A program made the translations under genes and the position numbers. This document shows, piece after piece, positions 621-21,473 of a stretch of DNA of 28,917 nucleotides (position 1 is the first letter of the stretch; each line of letters opens with the position of its first letter). The notes under the pieces are model-generated. The model was not told the DNA's origin and searched no databases. It saw only the letters and a list, made by a program, of their open reading frames with translations. The stretch covers positions 1 to 28,917 of the forward strand of contig JAVZCV010000014.1 in NCBI GenBank assembly GCA_038874215.1, written 5' to 3'. Source of the stretch: Candidatus Micrarchaeia archaeon. Lineage in GTDB: Archaea > Micrarchaeota > Micrarchaeia > Burarchaeales > JAVZCV01.

Positions 621-838
621 GCGTCTATTACAACGGAATTGTCGGCGATTATAGAATTAGAATAAAAGGGCCGCTTTCAACGTCCGATGCGGTGAGAGCT
701 TTTGAATACATATCCGGTGCGAGCAGAGGCCGTATTGTTTTTAATAGAGGGCAGGAGGAGACAGTATCAGACAAGTATTTGGGCGATTTTGAGATTAGGG
801 ATTTAAGCGGGATAGAGATAAGTGTGAGAAGACGTTGA
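608..838 (+). CDS. small hypothetical protein
   Basis: 76-aa ORF overlapping the end of the previous ORF, operon-like arrangement. Confidence 0.5.
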   Translation: MDGVSVYYNGIVGDYRIRIKGPLSTSDAVRAFEYISGASRGRIVFNRGQEETVSDKYLGDFEIRDLSGIEISVRRR

Positions 839-894: not shown

Positions 895-1995
895 ATGCGT
901 GCGGGTAATGTTTTCAGCAGGCTTGGGAATGAGGAAACAGAGATATTCAAAGACGAACGGGTTTTGATGCCCGACTATCTGCCCGAAGTCCTCCCGCACA
1001 GAGAAAAGGAGATAGAAGGCATAGCGCTAGCGCTTAAGCCAGCGGCACGAGGGAAGAGAACAGAGGGGCTTTTTATTCACGGTCCTCCAGGAAGCGGTAA
1101 AACTGCGTGCGTCAGGTATGTTTTGGAACACCTGAAGGAATACACGCAGAGAGCAGTCCCGATATACATAAACTGCTGGGAAACATCAACAAGGCACGGT
1201 ATACTGAGCACAATAGCAACCGCGTTGGGCGAGATTCTGCCGAGGAGAGGAATTGCAACCGATGAAATAACGGAACGGATTGTTGGGGCGATTAGGAGGG
1301 AGGGAAAACTTCCGGTTGTTGCTCTTGATGAAGCGGACAGGCTTTTTGCAAGCCAGTATGAAGAAGAGAGGATAGTGTACGATTTAGTCAGGGCGTGTGA
1401 AGTCTTTTCGGTAAATTTCGGCACGATAATAATAACGAATAAGAAAGAGATTTTGATTAAGCTTGATGAGAGGATAAGGAGCTCGCTTGCGCAGAGGCAG
1501 GTAGAGTTCAAGCGTTACGGGCCTGATGAACTGAAGGACATATTGCGAGAACGTGCTCGCATGGCCTTTCATCCGAACACCGTGGACGATGAATCTATTG
1601 CTCTCTGTGCAGCGTATGCAGCAAAGAATGGCGGGGACGCACGCCTTGCGATAAACTGCCTTTGGAAGGCTGGCAGGATAGCAGAAGCGGGAACAAGTGG
1701 GAAGGTTCGTATTGAAGACGTGAGAAAGGCTTTTCTTGACGTTTCTGCAGAGCTTGAAAAAAGGAAAAACGGCATGCTTGATGAAACCTCAAAGAGGATA
1801 ATTGAAGTTTTGCGTGAGCGTGGGGAGATAAAAAGCGGCGAGCTTTATTCACTAATAAAAGAAAACGACAGGACAATAAGAAACCATCTGAAAAAATTGG
1901 AGAGGCTTGGAATGATAGAAACAGTTCTTGTGAAAGAAGGAAGGGGAAAGACAAGGATAATACGAATCAAACGAACGCTTTTTTCTCAGGTGTAG
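895..1995 (+). CDS. cdc6: Cdc6/Orc1 replication initiation AAA+ ATPase
   Basis: IFKDERVLMPDYLP..LPHRE N-terminus, Walker A GPPGSGKT, Walker B VALDEAD, GDAR sensor motif, C-terminal winged helix. Confidence 0.95.
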   Translation: MRAGNVFSRLGNEETEIFKDERVLMPDYLPEVLPHREKEIEGIALALKPAARGKRTEGLFIHGPPGSGKTACVRYVLEHLKEYTQRAVPIYINCWETSTRHGILSTIATALGEILPRRGIATDEITERIVGAIRREGKLPVVALDEADRLFASQYEEERIVYDLVRACEVFSVNFGTIIITNKKEILIKLDERIRSSLAQRQVEFKRYGPDELKDILRERARMAFHPNTVDDESIALCAAYAAKNGGDARLAINCLWKAGRIAEAGTSGKVRIEDVRKAFLDVSAELEKRKNGMLDETSKRIIEVLRERGEIKSGELYSLIKENDRTIRNHLKKLERLGMIETVLVKEGRGKTRIIRIKRTLFSQV

Positions 1996-2732: not shown

Positions 2733-2816
2733 CTAGACTACGGCCGCATCGGCATTATATTGGCGGGATAAAAATAAAAATGGATAGATGGGAAAATGGG
2801 GGGACCGAGATTTGAA

Positions 2817-2894
2817 TTCCCGTGCCCTTTCTGTTCTTTCGGAATCGCTTTTTATTTGGGGTTGAGCACTTTCTTTTCCGAAAAAGAAAGGGCT
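2817..2894 (-). other. tRNA-Pro intron at 53/54 (78 nt)
   Basis: CCCG/CGGG central helix, AG|A and AA|U bulges, GCCCUUUC/GAAAGGGC intron helix. Confidence 0.83.
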
Positions 2895-3485: not shown

Positions 3486-3695
3486 ATCATGTGAATTTGC
3501 ATAAGGAGAATAAAATGATTTCTGCGAATGAGAAAATAAGAATCGGATGAAGAGAGCAATGCATGAGGATGCAAGGGCTTTAGTAACGGCAGGCTCGCAG
3601 ATCGCGTAAGCTCTCTGCATACACCCCCGTCCTATCAATGCCGTCTGCTACGGCCGCCCATCGCCACCTCGTTTTGAGGATGGCTTCGTCCTTAG

Positions 3696-3739
3696 TTAAG
3701 CCTCCGATAACCATCCTACCAAAAACTGGTTATCGGAGT
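3696..3739 (-). other. 23S intron (~E. coli 2754/2755, 44 nt)
   Basis: Interrupts GAAAGCAU|CUAAG; strict BHB AAGC/GCUU with AU|A and AA|C bulges; 12-bp intron stem CUCCGAUAACCA. Confidence 0.9.
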
Positions 3740-3953
3740 ATGCTTTCAGGACTTATCCATAAGCGCGTAGCTGCCCGGCAGTGCCAAAGACAACCGGTAG
3801 ACCAGAGGCGCCGATCCCCAGTTCCTCTCGTACTTAGGGGACCTTCCTCTCAGGTGGCGAGCACTCCCAGTAGATACTACCGAACTGTCTCGCGACGTTC
3901 TGAACCCAGCTCATGTAGGTCTTTAATGGATGAACAACCCAACCATTGGCGGC

Positions 3954-3996
3954 TTACAGCCTCGCAAACCGTCTGCTGAAAAATGGTTTGCAAGGT
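3954..3996 (-). other. 23S intron (~E. coli 2533, H91 loop, 43 nt)
   Basis: GCAG/CUGU helix, GA|A and AA|G bulges, 11-bp intron stem CCUUGCAAACC/GGUUUGCGAGG. Confidence 0.88.
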
Positions 3997-4053
3997 TCCT
4001 GCACCGCCAGGATGACCTAAGCCGACAGCGATGTACCAAACCGCGGGGTCGAT

Positions 4054-4112
4054 TCGTACAAACTTTCTTTCCTTTCTTTTGATGAAACTTTTCTTTAGGA
4101 AAGAAAAGCTTT
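4054..4112 (-). other. 23S intron (~E. coli 2477/2478, H89, 59 nt)
   Basis: Strict BHB: GUAC/GUAC helix, CC|A and GA|A bulges, both flanking helices paired. Confidence 0.9.
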
Positions 4113-4609
4113 GGGTACTCTCGCCCGCGACGAGCCTGTTACCCCCGGGGTAGCTTTTCTGACAGCTTGGGCCCCCATTAAAAGGGACACCAAGGTTCGT
4201 TAGGCCCTGCTTTCGCACCTGCGTGCCCTGCTGTGCGGCACACAGTCAGTCCTGCATTTGTCCTTAACCCTTAACGGCGGATTTCTGACCCGCCTAAGCA
4301 GAACTTTGGGCGCCCTTGTTTCCCTATCGAGGGCGTACCGCCCCAGCCAAACTATCCACCTGCCGCTGTCCCCTTCCGGGTGAGAGGCACGGTCCTCGTT
4401 GAGTGGTGTTACACTTTCGCCTCCGCATCCCCCGAGAGGAATGCCTCTGCGGCTCCCACTTACGCTCCGCAACAAAAACCATGCCCCAACAACAGGCTAT
4501 AGTAAAGCTCCACGGGGTCTTCGTTTCCCACTGGGAGTCCTCCGCATATTCACGGAGAAGTGAGTTCACCAGGTCCCGGGTAGGGACAGTGGGAGAGTCG
4601 TTATGCCCT

Positions 4610-4648
4610 TTCCACCGGCATCAATATATAAAAATGGATTGATGCCGT
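4610..4648 (-). other. 23S intron (~E. coli 1969/1970, 39 nt)
   Basis: 10-bp hairpin CGGCAUCAAU/AUUGAUGCCG inserted in GCAUGA..GGCAUAACG; relaxed BHB with 3 of 4 central pairs; register uncertain. Confidence 0.78.
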
Positions 4649-4748
4649 TCATGCAAGCCGCCAATTAAGCGGCGAGGTACTACGCTACCTTAAGAGGGTC
4701 AGAGTTACCCCCGCTCTTTACCGGCGCTTTGCTCCGTTGGAACGGAGT

Positions 4749-4781
4749 TTCGCCGAACCATTCTATATAAAGAAAGGTTCT
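4749..4781 (-). other. 23S intron (~E. coli 1854, H68, 33 nt)
   Basis: CGUC/GGCG helix, AA|A bulges on both strands, GAACC/GGUUC intron helix. Confidence 0.85.
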
Positions 4782-5724
4782 TTGACGTACCGGCAGTGAG
4801 CAGGCATCGGCCGCTATACTAAGCCTTACGGCTTTGCAGCGACCTGTGTTTTTGGTAAACAGTCGCTCTCCCCTTGTCACTGCGACCTGCGATTCCACTT
4901 GCGCAGAAACGCAGGCATGGCTTCTCCCGAAGTTACGCCACTAATTTGCCGAATTCCCTTACCCGAGTTCTCCTGACACGCCTGAGCCTTTTCAGCCAGC
5001 AACACCTGTACTGGTTCTAGGTACGGTCATGCGGAATCGTATTGGCTCCCTTTTCACGGGCTCAAGGAATTGACCGAACTGGCTTGCGCCAGCCATTCCC
5101 AAGATTAGGCTGCTTCTCCTCATAACGAGTCTCCACAGCCTTGCCTTGGTTAGACAGCCGAAGCTGCTCGGCCTATCCCCAAGCGTCAGGAACCAATATT
5201 GCGTTGCCGCGTCTATCCGCATGGCACGGGAATTTTAACCCGTTTCCCTTTCGCCACCGAGTAATTGGCTGGTGGCTTAGGACCGGCTTACTCTTGGCTG
5301 ACGAACGTTGCCAAGAAAACCGTGTGCTTTCGGCGTCCAGGATTCTCGCCTGGATTTGCTGTTACTAACACCAGGATGTTCATTCCTAATCGGTCCATCG
5401 GACCTCACGGCCCGACTTCTACCCGATCAGGACGCCCCCCTACCAGCACTTTGCTATGCAAAGTGCTCCGAGGTATCGGCACCAGACTTAGCCCCGAGCA
5501 TCTTCGGAACCTGCAATCTCGGCTGGTCCGCTATTACGCGTTGTTTAAAGGATGGCTGCTTCTAAGCCTACCTCCCAGCTGTTTTAGATTGGAGATTCCT
5601 TGTGGATTCGCACTTAGTCTGGATTTAGGGGCCTTAACCCCGGTCTCGGTCGTTCCCGTTCAGGCATGCTAGCTTACCCAGCATGCCCAACTCCTGCCTT
5701 CTACGGCGACGATGGATTCGGAGT

Positions 5725-5759
5725 TTTGTCGACCTTTTCTTTTTAAAAGAAAAGGTTCT
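5725..5759 (-). other. 23S intron (~E. coli 910, H38, 35 nt)
   Basis: UGUC/GACA helix, AA|A bulges, ACCUUUUCUUUU/AAAAGAAAAGGU hairpin. Confidence 0.87.
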
Positions 5760-5921
5760 TTGACAAAGTGGTAGAGCCTTTCGGCTCCGTGCCACTTAAT
5801 CAGTGCTCTACCCCATCGTCTGCCTCTAGCAGGGCTATTCTGAGGAATACTTTGGGGGGAACCCGCTATCGCCGAGTTCGATAGGACTTTCACCCCTACA
5901 CGCAGGTCACCTAAGCAGATA

Positions 5922-5984
5922 TTCCAGACAGCGATGGCAATTTAGAAAAACAGCCATCGCCGCTTACTAGCACTAGATGCGGGC
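5922..5984 (-). other. 23S intron (~E. coli 745-750, H35 loop, 63 nt)
   Basis: CUAG/CUGG helix, UA|A and AA|U bulges, 11-bp intron stem GCGGCGAUGGC/GCCAUCGCUGU; exon is divergent so the boundary rests on the BHB register. Confidence 0.78.
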
Positions 5985-6595
5985 CTCCACCGTCTTGGAA
6001 GACGGCTTCGCCCTGCCCACGTGTAGCTCACATCGGCTTCGGGTCTCATGAGAGTGATTAACCGCACTTTCATACGGCGGGCCTCCCTTTCGGTGCGCCC
6101 TATCGCTTTCGCTACGCCTTTCAGCTCACCACTCCCATGAACTCCCTGGCTCTTGCTTCGAGAAGAACGATGCAACCCTGTTTGGCGTTGGCTCGCTCAT
6201 CGCATCTCTGCGAATTGCTTCGCCACGCTACATTCCTTTCGGGCAGCATCGACCTGTAGTCTCTCAGTTTCAGGCTCTTTTCACTCCCCTTCCGGGGTAC
6301 TTTTCAGCTTTTGCTCGCGCTACTAGTGCGCTATCGGTCTCGGGTTATATTTAGGGTTGGATGTTAATACACCCATATTCACGCCCCATACCCGAGGGGC
6401 GCTACTCACCGCTCATCCTTCCCCATGCCTACGCCTACGGGGCTATCACCCTCTATGGCAGAGCTTTCCAGCTCTCTTCGGCTCGGCAGAAGGGATAGTT
6501 GATGAGCACCACATCTCCCACACATTACTGTGCAGGATTCAGGTTGCCCTGTGCGGCTTTCAGTCGCCCTTACTAACCGCATCCCTTTTGGTTTC

Positions 6596-6637
6596 TTAGA
6601 ATTTTGCCAACCTCATTCAAAAACGGGTTGGCAAAAT
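6596..6637 (-). other. 23S intron (~E. coli 219/220, 42 nt)
   Basis: Interrupts conserved AGGAAAA|GAAA; GGAA/UUCU helix, AA|A and AA|G bulges, UUUUGCCAACC/GGUUGGCAAAA stem. Confidence 0.87.
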
Positions 6638-6939
6638 TTTTCCTGCGGGTACTAAGATGTTTCAATTCCCCGCGTAATTACCCATTACTGGGTTATGGGC
6701 AATCCTGGGTTCAAGGGCTGCCTGCGCCTACCCCAGGCTTATCGCAGCTTGCCACGGCCCACAACTACCCGAGCCTAGCCATCCCCTGAGAGACAGCAAC
6801 AGCATCCGTGAACATGCATCGCCTCTCTTCATCCTCATGACTCTCAAGCATGAGAGCTGCCTTTCGGCGCATTCCCAACAGCGTTGGGACATGCTACTCG
6901 TGAAATGAGTAGTATGAATGTGATATGGACTCGGCGAGA

Positions 6940-6991: not shown

Positions 6992-7013
6992 TTTGAACTC
7001 GCGGCCTCCTCCT

Positions 7014-7045
7014 TATTTGAAACTTTTCTTTTTAAGAAAAGTTCA
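7014..7045 (-). other. tRNA-Ala canonical intron at 37/38 (32 nt)
   Basis: Strict BHB: UUUG/CAAA helix, CG|U and UA|A bulges, GAACUUUUCUU/AAGAAAAGUUU stem. Confidence 0.9.
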
Positions 7046-7596
7046 CGCAAAGGAGGCGCTCTACCACTGAGCTACGAGCCCAACCTTTCAACTGTGTTTC
7101 AAAAGAAACACAGCACAACCCCAAGAACCGAATCCACGCTCTCGCGCCTTGCACGTAAACTAAAGGAGGTGATCTATCCGCAGGTTCCCCTACGGATACC
7201 TTGTTACGACTTAGCCCCCCTCATAAAGCTCTAGTTCGACGCTACCACGAGGATAACGCCTCACTAGAACCTTACTTGGGTGACTTGACGGGCGGTGTGT
7301 GCAAGGAGCGGGGACGTATTCACCGCGCGATGTTGACACGCGATTACTAGGGATTCCAGCTTCATGAGGGCGAGTTTCAGCCCTCAATCCGAACTCAGGC
7401 TAGGTTTGGGGATTAGCTTCTCCTCTCGGAGTCGCAACCCATTGTCCTAGCCATTGTAGGCCACGTGTAGCCCGGGAGATTCAGGGCATACTGACCTACC
7501 GTCGCCCTCTCCTTCCTCCTGCTTAACGCAGGCAGTCTCTACAGAGTGCCCGTTTCAAAAGAAACGGTAGCAACTGTAGACGAGGGTCTCGCTCGT

Positions 7597-8114
7597 TTCC
7601 GGGCCTGCGGGCATCAAACTTTCAAAAATTTAAGATGAGTTTTTACAAAACCAAGAAAATCTGATGAGATGTAAAGAGCACTGCCTATGCGCTTTGTCCT
7701 AAAATTGAGTCTTTCAAGCATGTGCTCGTCTGCTTCGTCGGCTCTTGCTAGGAAGGGCAAGCCTTTGCGGATACCACCACAACCATCAAAAAAGCCTGCG
7801 AGGTATTCTGCGCTCTTTTCGTTCCTTTCTCTGAAAATATTCAAGCGCTCATTGACAACCTTCTGAAAAAACTTTTTGTAAGCGGAGTGATAGAAGTATG
7901 CCTCGTTCTCTTTTATCGTTATCTTATCCCCACGCGTTAGCCCGTTTCTGATGCACTCTGAGACGAATATTCCAACTATTTTTTTGTTTCCTGTTATCCC
8001 TATTCCGTGCTCTCCCCCTCTCGCCTTCCATAGGCCAACTACATATGCGATATTTGGAGTTAGTTTCAGCTTCATTCAATCACTCTTCAATCAACATGAG
8101 GCTGCCCACAGGCA
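7597..8114 (-). mobile_element. 16S rRNA BHB intron (~E. coli 1101/1102, 518 nt) carrying a homing-endonuclease ORF
   Basis: Removal restores AAGUCCGGUA|ACGAGCG; CCGG/CCGG helix, UA|U and AA|A bulges, 11-bp stem GCCUGUGGGCA/UGCCCGCAGGC. Confidence 0.93.
7614..8075 (-). CDS. intron-encoded LAGLIDADG-family protein
   Basis: Two LAGLIDADG-like helices, IAYVVGLWKARGG (degenerate) and EYLAGFFDGCGGI; sense to the rRNA and inside the intron loop. Confidence 0.85.
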   Translation of the reverse strand: MKLKLTPNIAYVVGLWKARGGEHGIGITGNKKIVGIFVSECIRNGLTRGDKITIKENEAYFYHSAYKKFFQKVVNERLNIFRERNEKSAEYLAGFFDGCGGIRKGLPFLARADEADEHMLERLNFRTKRIGSALYISSDFLGFVKTHLKFLKV

Positions 8115-8262
8115 TACCGGACTTAACCGGACAGCTCACACCACGAGCTGACGATGGCCATGCACCACCTCTCGGCTCGTCTGGCAAGATCTTCAGTCTG
8201 GCCTTCATACTGCCGTCTCTCCCGGTAATATTCCCGGCGTTGAATCCAATTGAACCGCAGCC

Positions 8263-8305
<43 letters not shown>

Positions 8306-8518
8306 ACCTTGCGGCCGTACTCCCCAGGCGGCAGACTTAACACCTACGCTACGGCACTGCAACAGCTCTAAGCTGTTGCAACACCACAGTCTGCATAATT
8401 TACTGCTAGGGCTACTCGGGTATCTAATCCGATTCGTTCTCCTAGCCTTCGTCCCTCACCGTCAGACGTGTTTTGGCCAAGCGCCTTCGCCACCGGGAGT
8501 CCTCACAGGATTACAGGA

Positions 8519-8575
8519 TTGTAAGACCCTTCTTTGGTGAAGCTTTCTTTGATTGCTTAATAGGAAGAAAGGTTC
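8519..8575 (-). other. 16S intron (~E. coli 694-697, h23 loop, 57 nt)
   Basis: Interrupts GGGGUAAAA|UCC; GUAA/UUAC helix, AA|G and AA|U bulges. Confidence 0.85.
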
Positions 8576-8861
8576 TTTTACCCCTACCCTGTGAGTACTC
8601 TTGGCCTCCCCCACTCTCAAGCTCCGCAGTATTTCCTGCGCGCCCCCGGGTTAAGCTCGGGGATTTCACAAGAAACTTACAGAGCCGGCTACGGACTCTT
8701 TAGGCCCAATATTCGTGGGCACCACTTGGGCTGCCAGTGTTACCGCGGCGGCTGGCACTGGTCTTACCCAGCCCTTATTCCCCAAGCGGGTTAGACTTGG
8801 GAAAAGGTGCTCCCGTAGAGCACCACTCAGAGTCCCCCCGTCACGCTTTCGCGCATTGCGG

Positions 8862-8892
<31 letters not shown>

Positions 8893-8900
8893 AGGGCCCT

Positions 8901-8945
8901 TGGACACGGTTCTGACCACCCTACTAAAACTCGTCAGAGCCATGT
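8901..8945 (-). other. 16S insertion or intron (~E. coli 329/330, 45 nt)
   Basis: Interrupts CUGAGACA|AGGGCCC; hairpin CAUGGCUCUGAC/GUCAGAACCGUG; central helix only about 2 bp. Confidence 0.75.
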
Positions 8946-9459
8946 TGTCTCAGTGCCCTTCTGGGGGCTCCAACTCCCATTGCCCCCACTGATTATCGGC
9001 TTGGTGGGCCGTTACCCCACCAACAACCTAATCAGCCGCAGTCCTTTCCTCAGGCGGGCTGGCTGCATTTCGCCAGTCCTTTTAGACCATCAAGCATTCC
9101 AGCATAGATGGCCTATCGGGTATTAGCCTCAGTTTCCCGAGGTTATCCCCGTCCTGAGGGTAAGTTGACTACGTGCTACTCAGCCGTTCGCCGCCCTCGG
9201 AAGCCCGAGAGCAGACTTGCATGGCTTAGTCGGACTCTGATAGCAGTGCCCTCCAGCAGGATCAACTGGAGTTTTCACGAATAGAGTACGCCACAAAGCG
9301 GATCAGCAGTGGAACACACTTGTTTCGTGTCGGTTCTTGAGGTCTCAGTCTAACCCAAGAGTCTTGGGTTACCATCGGTCATGTAGGCTGTAGTGGATAG
9401 AATGTTCATTGCACGAAAAAAATCGCGCTCTATTCGGCCAGGACTACAGCCGAATCGGG

Positions 9460-21272: not shown

Positions 21273-21297
21273 AAAAAATGCCAAGGGCGGGATTTGA

Positions 21298-21329
21298 TTG
21301 CGGGACCATTCGGCTTTTCCGAACGACCT
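21298..21329 (-). other. tRNA-Met intron at 54/55 (32 nt)
   Basis: GCGG/CCGC helix, GU|A and AA|U bulges, GGUCGUUCGG/CCGAAUGGUC stem. Confidence 0.88.
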
Positions 21330-21346
21330 ACCCGCGACATCCAGAT

Positions 21347-21398
21347 ATCCCGCGAGCGCTTTTGATTTCATTGCACATGGCTCATAACTCATACGCCG
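21347..21398 (-). other. tRNA-Met intron at 37/38 (52 nt, possibly two stacked introns)
   Basis: Insertion at the canonical site containing tandem UAUGAG copies complementary to the anticodon loop. Confidence 0.85.
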
Positions 21399-21473
21399 TA
21401 TGAGTCTGGCGCTCTAACCAGGCTGAGCTACCTTGGCATAAAATTTTTCCAGGAGATATTTTTATACTCTACC

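Follow-up and report, generated by a model that had tools for sequence, protein, structure and literature searches.

Eight short bulge-helix-bulge introns in the only 23S rRNA gene found in a Micrarchaeia genome, and their relatives in tRNA genes and in other 23S genes

The stretch of DNA analysed here, referred to as the window (28,917 nucleotides, nt), is contig JAVZCV010000014.1 of the Candidatus Micrarchaeia archaeon assembly GCA_038874215.1 (order Burarchaeales), and its minus strand carries an archaeal ribosomal RNA (rRNA) operon whose 23S gene is interrupted by eight short insertions. Rfam returned four matches in the window: the 16S gene, a spacer transfer RNA (tRNA), the 23S gene (LSU_rRNA_archaea, where LSU is the large subunit; RF02540, 2397.9 bits, model positions 1-2987) and a further tRNA of 159 nt (Table 1). 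The genome (G000; 1.13 Mb in 38 contigs, 91% complete) contains a single 23S match.

A MAFFT alignment was made of the window gene, 13 complete or almost complete 23S genes from the same order and the Escherichia coli 23S (L021), and the eight insertions, of 33-59 nt each, are visible in it. Their borders were refined by bulge-helix-bulge (BHB) geometry, and those of intron 5 were placed by hand. Together they amount to 338 nt, and splicing in silico shortens the gene from 3249 to 2911 nt; three of the relatives that served as intron-less references (L001-L003), which are without any insertion of at least 15 nt, measure 2909-2935 nt. E. coli positions were read after splicing and realignment; the E. 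coli copy used is 2905 nt long and runs one base ahead of the landmark positions as we take them to be, starting between 753 and 1906, and all site numbers are uncertain by one base. Two of the eight sites are also filled among the 13 same-order relatives, 1853 in L011 and 2534 in L010. A preliminary description, made from the letters of the window, had reported eight 23S insertions free of open reading frames (ORFs) with approximate E. coli positions. The insertions are borne out by the alignment, and no ORF of 20 amino acids (aa) fits in any of the eight; the span that had been given, 3696..6637, coincides exactly with the outermost intron ends, and the E. coli positions were correct within 1-3 nt.

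Table 1. Introns of the 23S gene and other features of the window. The mark ^ stands for an insertion point in the E. coli columns and for the cut in the bulges. T5 is a run of five T; module A is a hairpin-and-tail sequence defined in the text.
Feature	Window positions	Strand	Length (nt)	Site, own numbering of E. coli copy	E. coli site	Setting	Central helix	Bulges	Other features
23S intron 1	6637-6596	minus	42	219^220	219^220	junction strand, domain I	GGAA/TTCT	aa^a and aa^g	inner stem 11 bp, T5 in loop
23S intron 2	5964-5922	minus	43	751^752	751^752	hairpin loop	CTAG/CTGG	ta^a and aa^t	inner stem 11 bp, T5 in loop
23S intron 3	5759-5725	minus	35	910^911	910^911	internal loop	TGTC/GACA	aa^a and aa^a	contains module A hairpin CTTTTCTTTT..AAGAAAAG
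23S intron 4	4781-4749	minus	33	1853^	~1853	internal loop	CGTC/GGCG	aa^a and aa^a	
23S intron 5	4648-4610	minus	39	1970^1971	1969^1970 (standard numbering)	junction strand directly preceding closing helix	GCAT/GTGG (3/4 pairs)	ga^a and aa^a	inner stem 10 bp, T5 in loop
23S intron 6	4112-4054	minus	59	2478^2479	2477^2478 (standard numbering)	hairpin loop	GTAC/GTAC	cc^a and ga^a	body is module A (hairpin + tail)
23S intron 7	3996-3954	minus	43	2535^2536	2534^2535 (standard numbering)	hairpin loop	GCAG/CTGT	ga^a and aa^g	inner stem 11 bp, T5 in loop
23S intron 8	3739-3696	minus	44	2755^2756	2754^2755 (standard numbering)	hairpin loop	AAGC/GCTT	at^a and aa^c	inner stem 12 bp, core ACCAGTTTTTGGTAGGATGGT
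23S rRNA gene	3563-6811	minus	3249						Rfam match
Spacer tRNA	6994-7081	minus							Rfam match
16S rRNA gene	7164-9272	minus							Rfam match
16S intron, long	7597-8114	minus	518		near 1093-1100		CCGG/CCGG	ta^t and aa^a	inner stem 11 bp
16S intron, short	8519-8575	minus	57		near 695-700		GTAA/TTAC	aa^g and aa^t	
tRNA	21279-21437		159						Rfam match
tRNA-Gly(TCC)	~2527-2749	minus							unannotated
tRNA, 3' end	~2797-2830								directly upstream of tRNA-Gly(TCC)

The BHB scan read each strand 5' to 3' as four central-helix bases, a 3-nt bulge cut after its second base and a flanking helix, a geometry taken from the tRNA literature. The 3-4-3 description given in the text of PMC3239211 agrees with it. 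All eight introns show this geometry, seven with a perfect central helix of four base pairs (bp) and 3-nt bulges and intron 5 with three of the four pairs. The inner stem measures 5-12 bp in seven introns; in intron 3 it consists of 2 bp, a bulged A and then 9 bp. The first intron base is A in every case and the last two bases are AA in seven of the eight, and at all eight sites the predicted spliced product is identical to the sequence of the intron-less relatives. A strict test (four central-helix pairs, at least three inner-stem pairs, a slide of 3) was passed by six of the eight real introns and by 194 of 20000 random placements of equal lengths; a relaxed criterion (three of four central pairs, at least two inner pairs, positional tolerance) was rejected, since by our estimate chance would satisfy it almost everywhere. 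Unconstrained minimum free energy (MFE) folds of the introns with short flanks form the whole central helix in six introns, three of its four pairs in intron 5 and none in intron 1. At site 2755 the helix carries a compensatory change, being AAGC/GCTT in the window and AGGC/GCCT in L117, another 23S gene of the class. The motifs are relaxed, HBh'-like forms; where an intron sits in a hairpin loop, the rRNA stem that carries the loop may act as the outer helix.

When mapped onto the LSU secondary structure by the Rfam consensus structure lines, half of the eight sites fall in hairpin loops and the others are divided equally between internal loops and junction strands; none of the introns lies in a variable region. 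We take the elements that hold introns 2, 3, 4, 6, 7 and 8 to be helices 35, 38, 68, 89, 91 and 97, respectively. The 20-nt intron flanks share 0.82-0.97 identity with nine relatives, against a gene mean of 0.78, which corresponds to percentiles 52-94: above the gene median, but not the most conserved stretches of the gene. Compared with E. coli, the flanks of sites 751 and 1853 fall below the gene mean, and the phrase "conserved functional loops" in the preliminary description is therefore fair for most sites and overstated for these two. According to the preliminary description, the 23S introns reported from archaea are concentrated in domains IV and V. Group I introns have a conserved catalytic core of paired regions and are in practice longer than 200 nt; as candidates they were rejected, with no group I family among the four Rfam matches of the window and insertions of only 33-59 nt.

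RNA from the environment covers two of the junctions. Among 24 runs listed, the best RNA run (X1, a metatranscriptome of a sediment community) contains 20% of the sampled words, and one of its contigs (375 nt, depth 72.7, 99% identical) matches window positions 5628-5723, 5759-5921 and 5965-6079 with 0, 3 and 0 mismatches. The contig omits 5922-5964, which is exactly intron 2, and 5724-5758, which is intron 3 shifted by one A, an equivalent cut. Other contigs of X1, aligned over 96-291 nt, show at most one mismatch to intron-free parts of the gene, and therefore the organism or a very near strain was present in the sample; the parts of the gene without X1 cover carry no information on splicing. 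The contig is what spliced rRNA is expected to look like and, provided that it does not come from a strain without these introns, it excludes excision without ligation at introns 2 and 3.

The genome encodes the enzymes that such introns would need. Its one splicing endonuclease gene is a 385-aa ORF on contig C2 that carries Pfam PF01974 in two stretches together with PF02778, and its residues 5-385 align end to end with residues 7-387 of PDB 4fz2_A (E 1.3e-138, 465 bits). According to the text of PMC12397907, 4FZ2 is the epsilon2 enzyme of ARMAN-2, and the text of PMC3239211 reports that this enzyme cleaved both strict and relaxed BHB motifs in vitro. The ORF is accordingly a predicted epsilon2-type (three-unit) splicing endonuclease. 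A full-length RtcB ligase is encoded as well (E 4.3e-177).

Some of the insertions resemble other introns of the same genome. Intron 6 matches contig C2 at 75593-75628 (94% over 36 nt, E 7e-10) and contig C1 at 160531-160567 (92% over 37 nt), with further matches at C4:38465-38496, C21:3822-3842 and, within the window, 2693-2717 and 7018-7035. These copies sit inside tRNA genes of a genome that has many non-canonical and multiple tRNA introns. Their common body, which we call module A, is a hairpin (CTTTTCTTTC, a loop and a stretch like GAAAGAAAAG) followed by a tail (TTTCATCAAAAG), and a genome search with the hairpin pattern yielded 34 strand hits, corresponding to 17 loci, where shuffled sequence yielded 3.6. 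The pairing segment on this same body differs from site to site, GTCT/GGAC in the tRNA D-loop copies and GTAC/GTAC in 23S helix 89. ARAGORN called module-bearing loci as tRNA-Trp and, after removal of BHB candidates, tRNA-Leu, and it calls tRNA-Gly(TCC) and tRNA-Gly(GCC) once the module-bearing D-loop insertions and the T-arm insertions are taken out; lengthened loci gave tRNA calls in two of three cases, and the locus at C2:75596 is a tRNA by eye only. Rfam at E<=0.1 returned no match on six module-bearing loci.

Introns 3 and 4 begin with nine identical nucleotides and sit at an equal offset within the 11-mer GTCAAACTCCG. This 11-mer occurs twice in the spliced 23S, only at the junctions of these two introns, and is one of three distinct 11-mers repeated in the gene; these features mark introns 3 and 4 as paralogs. 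The 21-nt core of intron 8 was found in two of 29 genomes of the order, at site 2755 in the window and at site 2309 in G009, with no control hits, and a close variant lies at 23S site 2273 in L096 and L097. In the 23S gene of G009 (L011), almost the same 31-nt hairpin stands at sites 84, 2058 and 2728, but its 4-nt pairing segment is different at every one of them.

The spacer tRNA has the anticodon TGC by eye (Ala), and its anticodon-loop intron consists of the module A hairpin and the start of the tail. The unannotated tRNA-Gly(TCC) of the window contains at least three insertions, one in the D-loop with module A and two in the T-arm region; it was missed by Rfam and ARAGORN, and ARAGORN detects it after removal of two insertions. 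The 3' end of another tRNA lies directly upstream of it. A second shared intron sequence, GGGAATTCAAAGCAGCTTTTT.GGAA.AGCTGC.CCAAAA, stands in the T-arm region of two tRNA genes (contig C14 ~2540-2600 and contig C2 ~75710-75760).

We extended the analysis to the class by searching 46 + 31 genomes for 23S genes, and all full or nearly full ones, from 37 relatives, made up a sample of 38 together with the window gene; five genomes with fragmentary matches (G008, G024, G050, G051 and G064) were left out. Insertions of at least 15 nt occur in 27 of the 38 genes, 113 in total, in 41 site clusters, and are most numerous in L117 (16), L011 (12), L113 (9) and the window gene (8). The strict BHB test was passed by 59 of the 113, compared with 344 of 3000 random pseudo-insertions. 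Taken as a set, the sites used by the window gene are not rare. The cluster at 2473-2477 is a hot spot, filled in 18 genes at two sub-sites 5 nt apart. Site 2534 is filled in three genes, and sites 2755, ~750 and 1853 in two each; at the site of intron 7, L010 has an intron at the same position and L113 one that lies 2 nt upstream. Sites 219, 910 and 1969 are filled in the window gene only, and the 1964-1969 cluster has neighbours 5-6 nt upstream. Introns of different genomes at the same site mostly have unrelated bodies and the same pairing segment. Among 35 strict-BHB mini-introns of 25-80 nt (class 23S genes L001-L014 and L094-L117 plus the window gene), 18 contain a T5 run, mostly on the 5' side of the hairpin loop, whereas 500 shuffles averaged 2.5 and never exceeded 8; in the window, introns 1, 2, 5, 7 and 8 have such a run. 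Stretches of oligo-T signal termination in archaea and are also bound by Sm-like proteins.

The gene L117 (G034:C12:13659-20365) is the maximum of the sample, a 6.7-kb 23S with insertions of 44-919 nt. The intron in its helix 35 loop has the central helix GTCT/GGAC, as in the tRNA D-loop introns of the window genome, and a module-A-like hairpin.

Taken together, we interpret the eight insertions as ORF-less archaeal BHB introns of a known kind that are spliced by the endonuclease, and give this reading a probability of about 0.88. The name "introns" in the preliminary description is backed by the BHB motifs, by predicted cuts that restore the exons exactly, by the genes for endonuclease and ligase and by an RNA contig over two junctions. 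In the pre-rRNA, four exon bases upstream of each insertion would pair with four near the intron 3' end, a 3-nt bulge would follow the central helix on each strand and the remainder of the intron would fold into a hairpin of 10-12 bp. The epsilon2-type endonuclease would then cleave after the second base of each bulge, and RtcB would ligate the exons and probably circularise the excised intron. Splicing would in this way restore the loops of helices 35, 38, 68, 89, 91 and 97 and two junction strands. We infer the action of this particular endonuclease, the removal of introns 1 and 4-8 and the circularisation of the excised pieces. Because there is only one 23S gene, every ribosome would depend on eight correct splicing events; the earlier proposal that splicing is probably obligatory gains support, by the same kind of reasoning, from this sole gene and from host loops that are 82-97% identical in the nine relatives. 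The introns would belong to a small number of hairpin families, whose members are met again in this genome's tRNA genes and, in relatives, at other positions of the 23S; only the 4-nt pairing segment is fitted to each site, and the introns would therefore have been gained by copying existing ones. This suggests that mini-introns move between genes, from tRNA to rRNA or in the opposite direction, and from site to site.

Several points weigh against this interpretation. The outer helix expected in a strict BHB is at best weak and in part absent, with 0-2 bp in seven introns and 4 bp in intron 5, and the MFE fold of intron 1 favours a slipped stem that forms none of the four central-helix pairs. 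The in vitro substrates reported for the epsilon2 enzyme in the text of PMC3239211 and PMC12397907 are tRNAs, and none is an rRNA. RNA support amounts to one assembled contig that bears on two of eight introns and has three mismatches, and a sister strain whose DNA is without introns 2 and 3 would yield the same contig. Joints over introns 4-7 in runs X2-X4 were not counted, with sides of 20-37 nt and 90-95% likeness; they stem most likely from intron-less rRNA of other organisms. As for the copying, reverse transcriptase (PF00078) and Y1 transposase (PF01797) gave no match in the 91%-complete genome, which leaves it without a candidate enzyme.

The alternative that survives best takes up the sister strain: the X1 contig would come from a strain without introns 2 and 3, splicing would be unproven here, and some insertions may be recent, poorly spliced and mildly harmful. 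The three mismatches in 374 nt of the contig, the variable presence of introns among related genomes and the origin of X1 from a sediment community all fit this. It was nevertheless judged improbable, since the 23S is single in a 91%-complete genome, so that unspliced insertions in helices 89 and 91 would affect all ribosomes, and since the six introns without RNA cover have a motif quality as high as that of the two with it. A slightly poorer case can be made for lineage-specific expansion hairpins that are kept in the mature 23S. Each insertion is indeed a stable hairpin in a loop or unpaired strand, where expansion segments also grow, and the RNA evidence from the organism covers introns 2 and 3 only; at these two of the eight sites, however, the insertion is absent from the RNA contig, and an expansion has no need of a 4-bp helix to the upstream exon with two 3-nt bulges in register. 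Moreover, most relatives are empty at the same sites and have different bodies where these are filled, the introns have 38% G+C against 56% in the exons, and one insertion copies a tRNA intron, all of which makes retention very improbable. Excision without ligation, RNase III-like as in some bacteria, would leave the 23S in nine separate pieces, which to our knowledge would be unprecedented. Short hairpin intervening sequences are known in bacterial 23S and suspected in bacteria of the candidate phyla radiation (CPR; text of PMC11270868), but with an X1 contig that is continuous over the junctions of introns 2 and 3 (two of eight sites), a motif that is the archaeal BHB and not a long RNase III duplex, and an encoded RtcB, this is the least probable explanation of all.

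Beyond the intron assignment itself, it is conceivable, and we offer it tentatively as something we doubt more than we believe, that these ORF-less hairpin mini-introns are themselves mobile elements, and that copies of a hairpin module enter the unpaired loops of structured RNAs with high expression, both tRNA and rRNA. A module would then survive only where its adjoining 4-nt segment pairs with the four upstream exon bases, because such pairing would instantly make it a substrate of the broad-specificity endonuclease. Mobility of this kind would explain module A in introns of tRNA D-loops and anticodon loops and of 23S helix 89, the paralogous introns in the repeated 11-mer of the gene, one hairpin core at 23S sites 2273, 2309 and 2755 in different families, and up to 16 insertions in one 23S gene of the class. 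The T5 loops and the module conserved across phyla might be the part that is recognised by a copying machinery or a host factor.

An exact-pattern scan with one genome per species placed module A at 60 loci. About 35 of these are archaeal by record title (Methanosarcinales, Methanophagales, Aenigmatarchaeota, Woesearchaeota, Iainarchaeota, Micrarchaeota, Altiarchaeota and others), and most of them keep an upstream hairpin arm almost base for base; they lie in tRNA introns, directly after tRNA 3' ends or in intergenic DNA. The remaining loci are bacterial, have no such arm and look like chance A-rich matches. Module A was found inside 23S exons at none of the 60 loci, and at one it lies ~85 nt beyond a 16S end. 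In the loci catalogued as L034-L093 the hairpin AAACTTTTCTT..AAGAAAAGTTT with the tail AATCAAAAG is near-invariant across metagenome-assembled genomes of many archaeal phyla, often directly behind tRNA 3' ends. In five such genomes, which bear the labels Methanophagales, Halobacteria, Methanomicrobiales and Methanobacteriota, the likeness extends into the flanks for ~40 nt on either side of the module, which hints at one mobile or viral element.

The 16S gene of the window contains two BHB introns of its own (Table 1). The 57-nt one begins GAACCTTTCTT, like 23S introns 3 and 4, and its site falls in what is presumably the loop region of helix 23. The 518-nt one has a sense-strand ORF of 153 aa (7614-8075) with a LAGLIDADG-like motif by eye, for which Pfam returned no match. 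Of the 13 loci in the text of PMC4496867, none corresponds to the 695-700 site, while locus 1093 is known there from Thermoproteales (Table 1 of that paper).

How archaeal introns are gained without a homing endonuclease has been a question since tRNA intron transposition was proposed. The window gene and its relatives offer natural experiments, in which one hairpin stands at different sites with only its 4-nt pairing segment altered, and in which a module is common to tRNA and rRNA. There are practical consequences as well: rRNA genes in these lineages exceed the length of the mature RNA by 10-130%, the sites of universal primers and probes may be interrupted by such introns, and tRNA and rRNA finders fail on such genes, with several tRNAs missed here by Rfam and ARAGORN. 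Ribosome production in a 1.1-Mb genome would hinge on ten correct splicing events within the rRNA operon alone.

In a literature search that did not extend to the classical catalogues (Comparative RNA Web, CRW; Kjems and Garrett 1991; Tocchini-Valentini 2011; Jackson et al. 2002) or to supplements, we found no paper on BHB introns at these eight sites, and none on multiple mini-introns in the 23S of DPANN archaea (Diapherotrites, Parvarchaeota, Aenigmarchaeota, Nanoarchaeota and Nanohaloarchaeota) or on a module common to tRNA and rRNA introns. The text of PMC5498576 mentions 16S introns in Mia14 and two similar sequences, one of them Ca. Micrarchaeum acidiphilum.

One close likeness is to the short (<50 nt) hairpin BHB introns in the 16S of Thermoproteales and Desulfurococcales (Jay and Inskeep 2015, PMC4496867), which, as far as the text of that paper describes them, are also free of ORFs, consist of a single hairpin with a BHB at the junction, avoid variable regions in favour of conserved positions that are unpaired or close to a bulge, and are removed by the tRNA splicing endonuclease. 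Those introns belong to the 16S of hyperthermophilic Crenarchaeota, whose enzyme is heterotetrameric; they occupy 7 of 13 loci and usually number one or few per gene, whereas the window has eight in one DPANN-type 23S with an epsilon2 enzyme, A+T-rich and with relaxed outer helices. The spread of one of the 16S hairpins was explained in the same text by co-conversion with an adjacent endonuclease-encoding intron, and the window 23S is without such a neighbour. The classical 23S BHB introns of Desulfurococcus mobilis, Staphylothermus marinus and Pyrobaculum (as cited in the text of PMC3608112 and PMC4496867) share chemistry, motif and host gene with ours but are hundreds of bases long, often carry a LAGLIDADG ORF and number one or two per gene. 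The window introns, in contrast, are 33-59 nt long, number eight and also occupy sites in domains I, II and VI. The positions of the classical introns are in domains IV and V.

The group I introns known from the 23S of archaea (Nawrocki et al. 2018, PMC6125680) and of CPR bacteria (Tsurumaki et al. 2024, PMC11270868) are similar in that many rRNA insertions accumulate in ultrasmall uncultured lineages, and different in that they are self-splicing, longer than 200 nt and located at sites 1917-1952 and 2500-2657, as reported in the text of both papers. None of the CPR sites named in the text of PMC11270868 (1917, 1931, 1952, 2593, 2604 and 2657) and none of the archaeal group I sites in that of PMC6125680 (1923, 1931, 2500 and 2593) coincides with a window site. 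BHB introns beside group I introns in the same DPANN 23S genes appear in the legend of Figure 1 of PMC6125680, whose text gives no positions for them.

Two further systems concern tRNA genes. Full-length alignment of the enzyme and many non-canonical or multiple tRNA introns link the window genome to ARMAN-2 with its disrupted tRNA genes and epsilon2 enzyme (Fujishima et al. 2011, PMC3239211; 4FZ2 and 9W2K, PMC12397907), a line of work that deals with tRNA substrates only and, in the text of these papers, leaves rRNA introns unmentioned. In the tRNA intron transposition of Thermoproteales (Fujishima et al. 2010, as described in the text of PMC4090602 and PMC4033280), near-identical introns at different gene positions were read as the result of copying, and the BHB requirement is thought to limit the possible targets. 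That transposition is described for tRNA genes only, whereas the window genome has its module in both tRNA and 23S introns, and paralogs stand at different 23S sites within and between genomes. New here are the module shared by intron 6 and the tRNA introns, the paralogy of introns 3 and 4, the presence of the intron 8 core at other sites and the class-wide counts.

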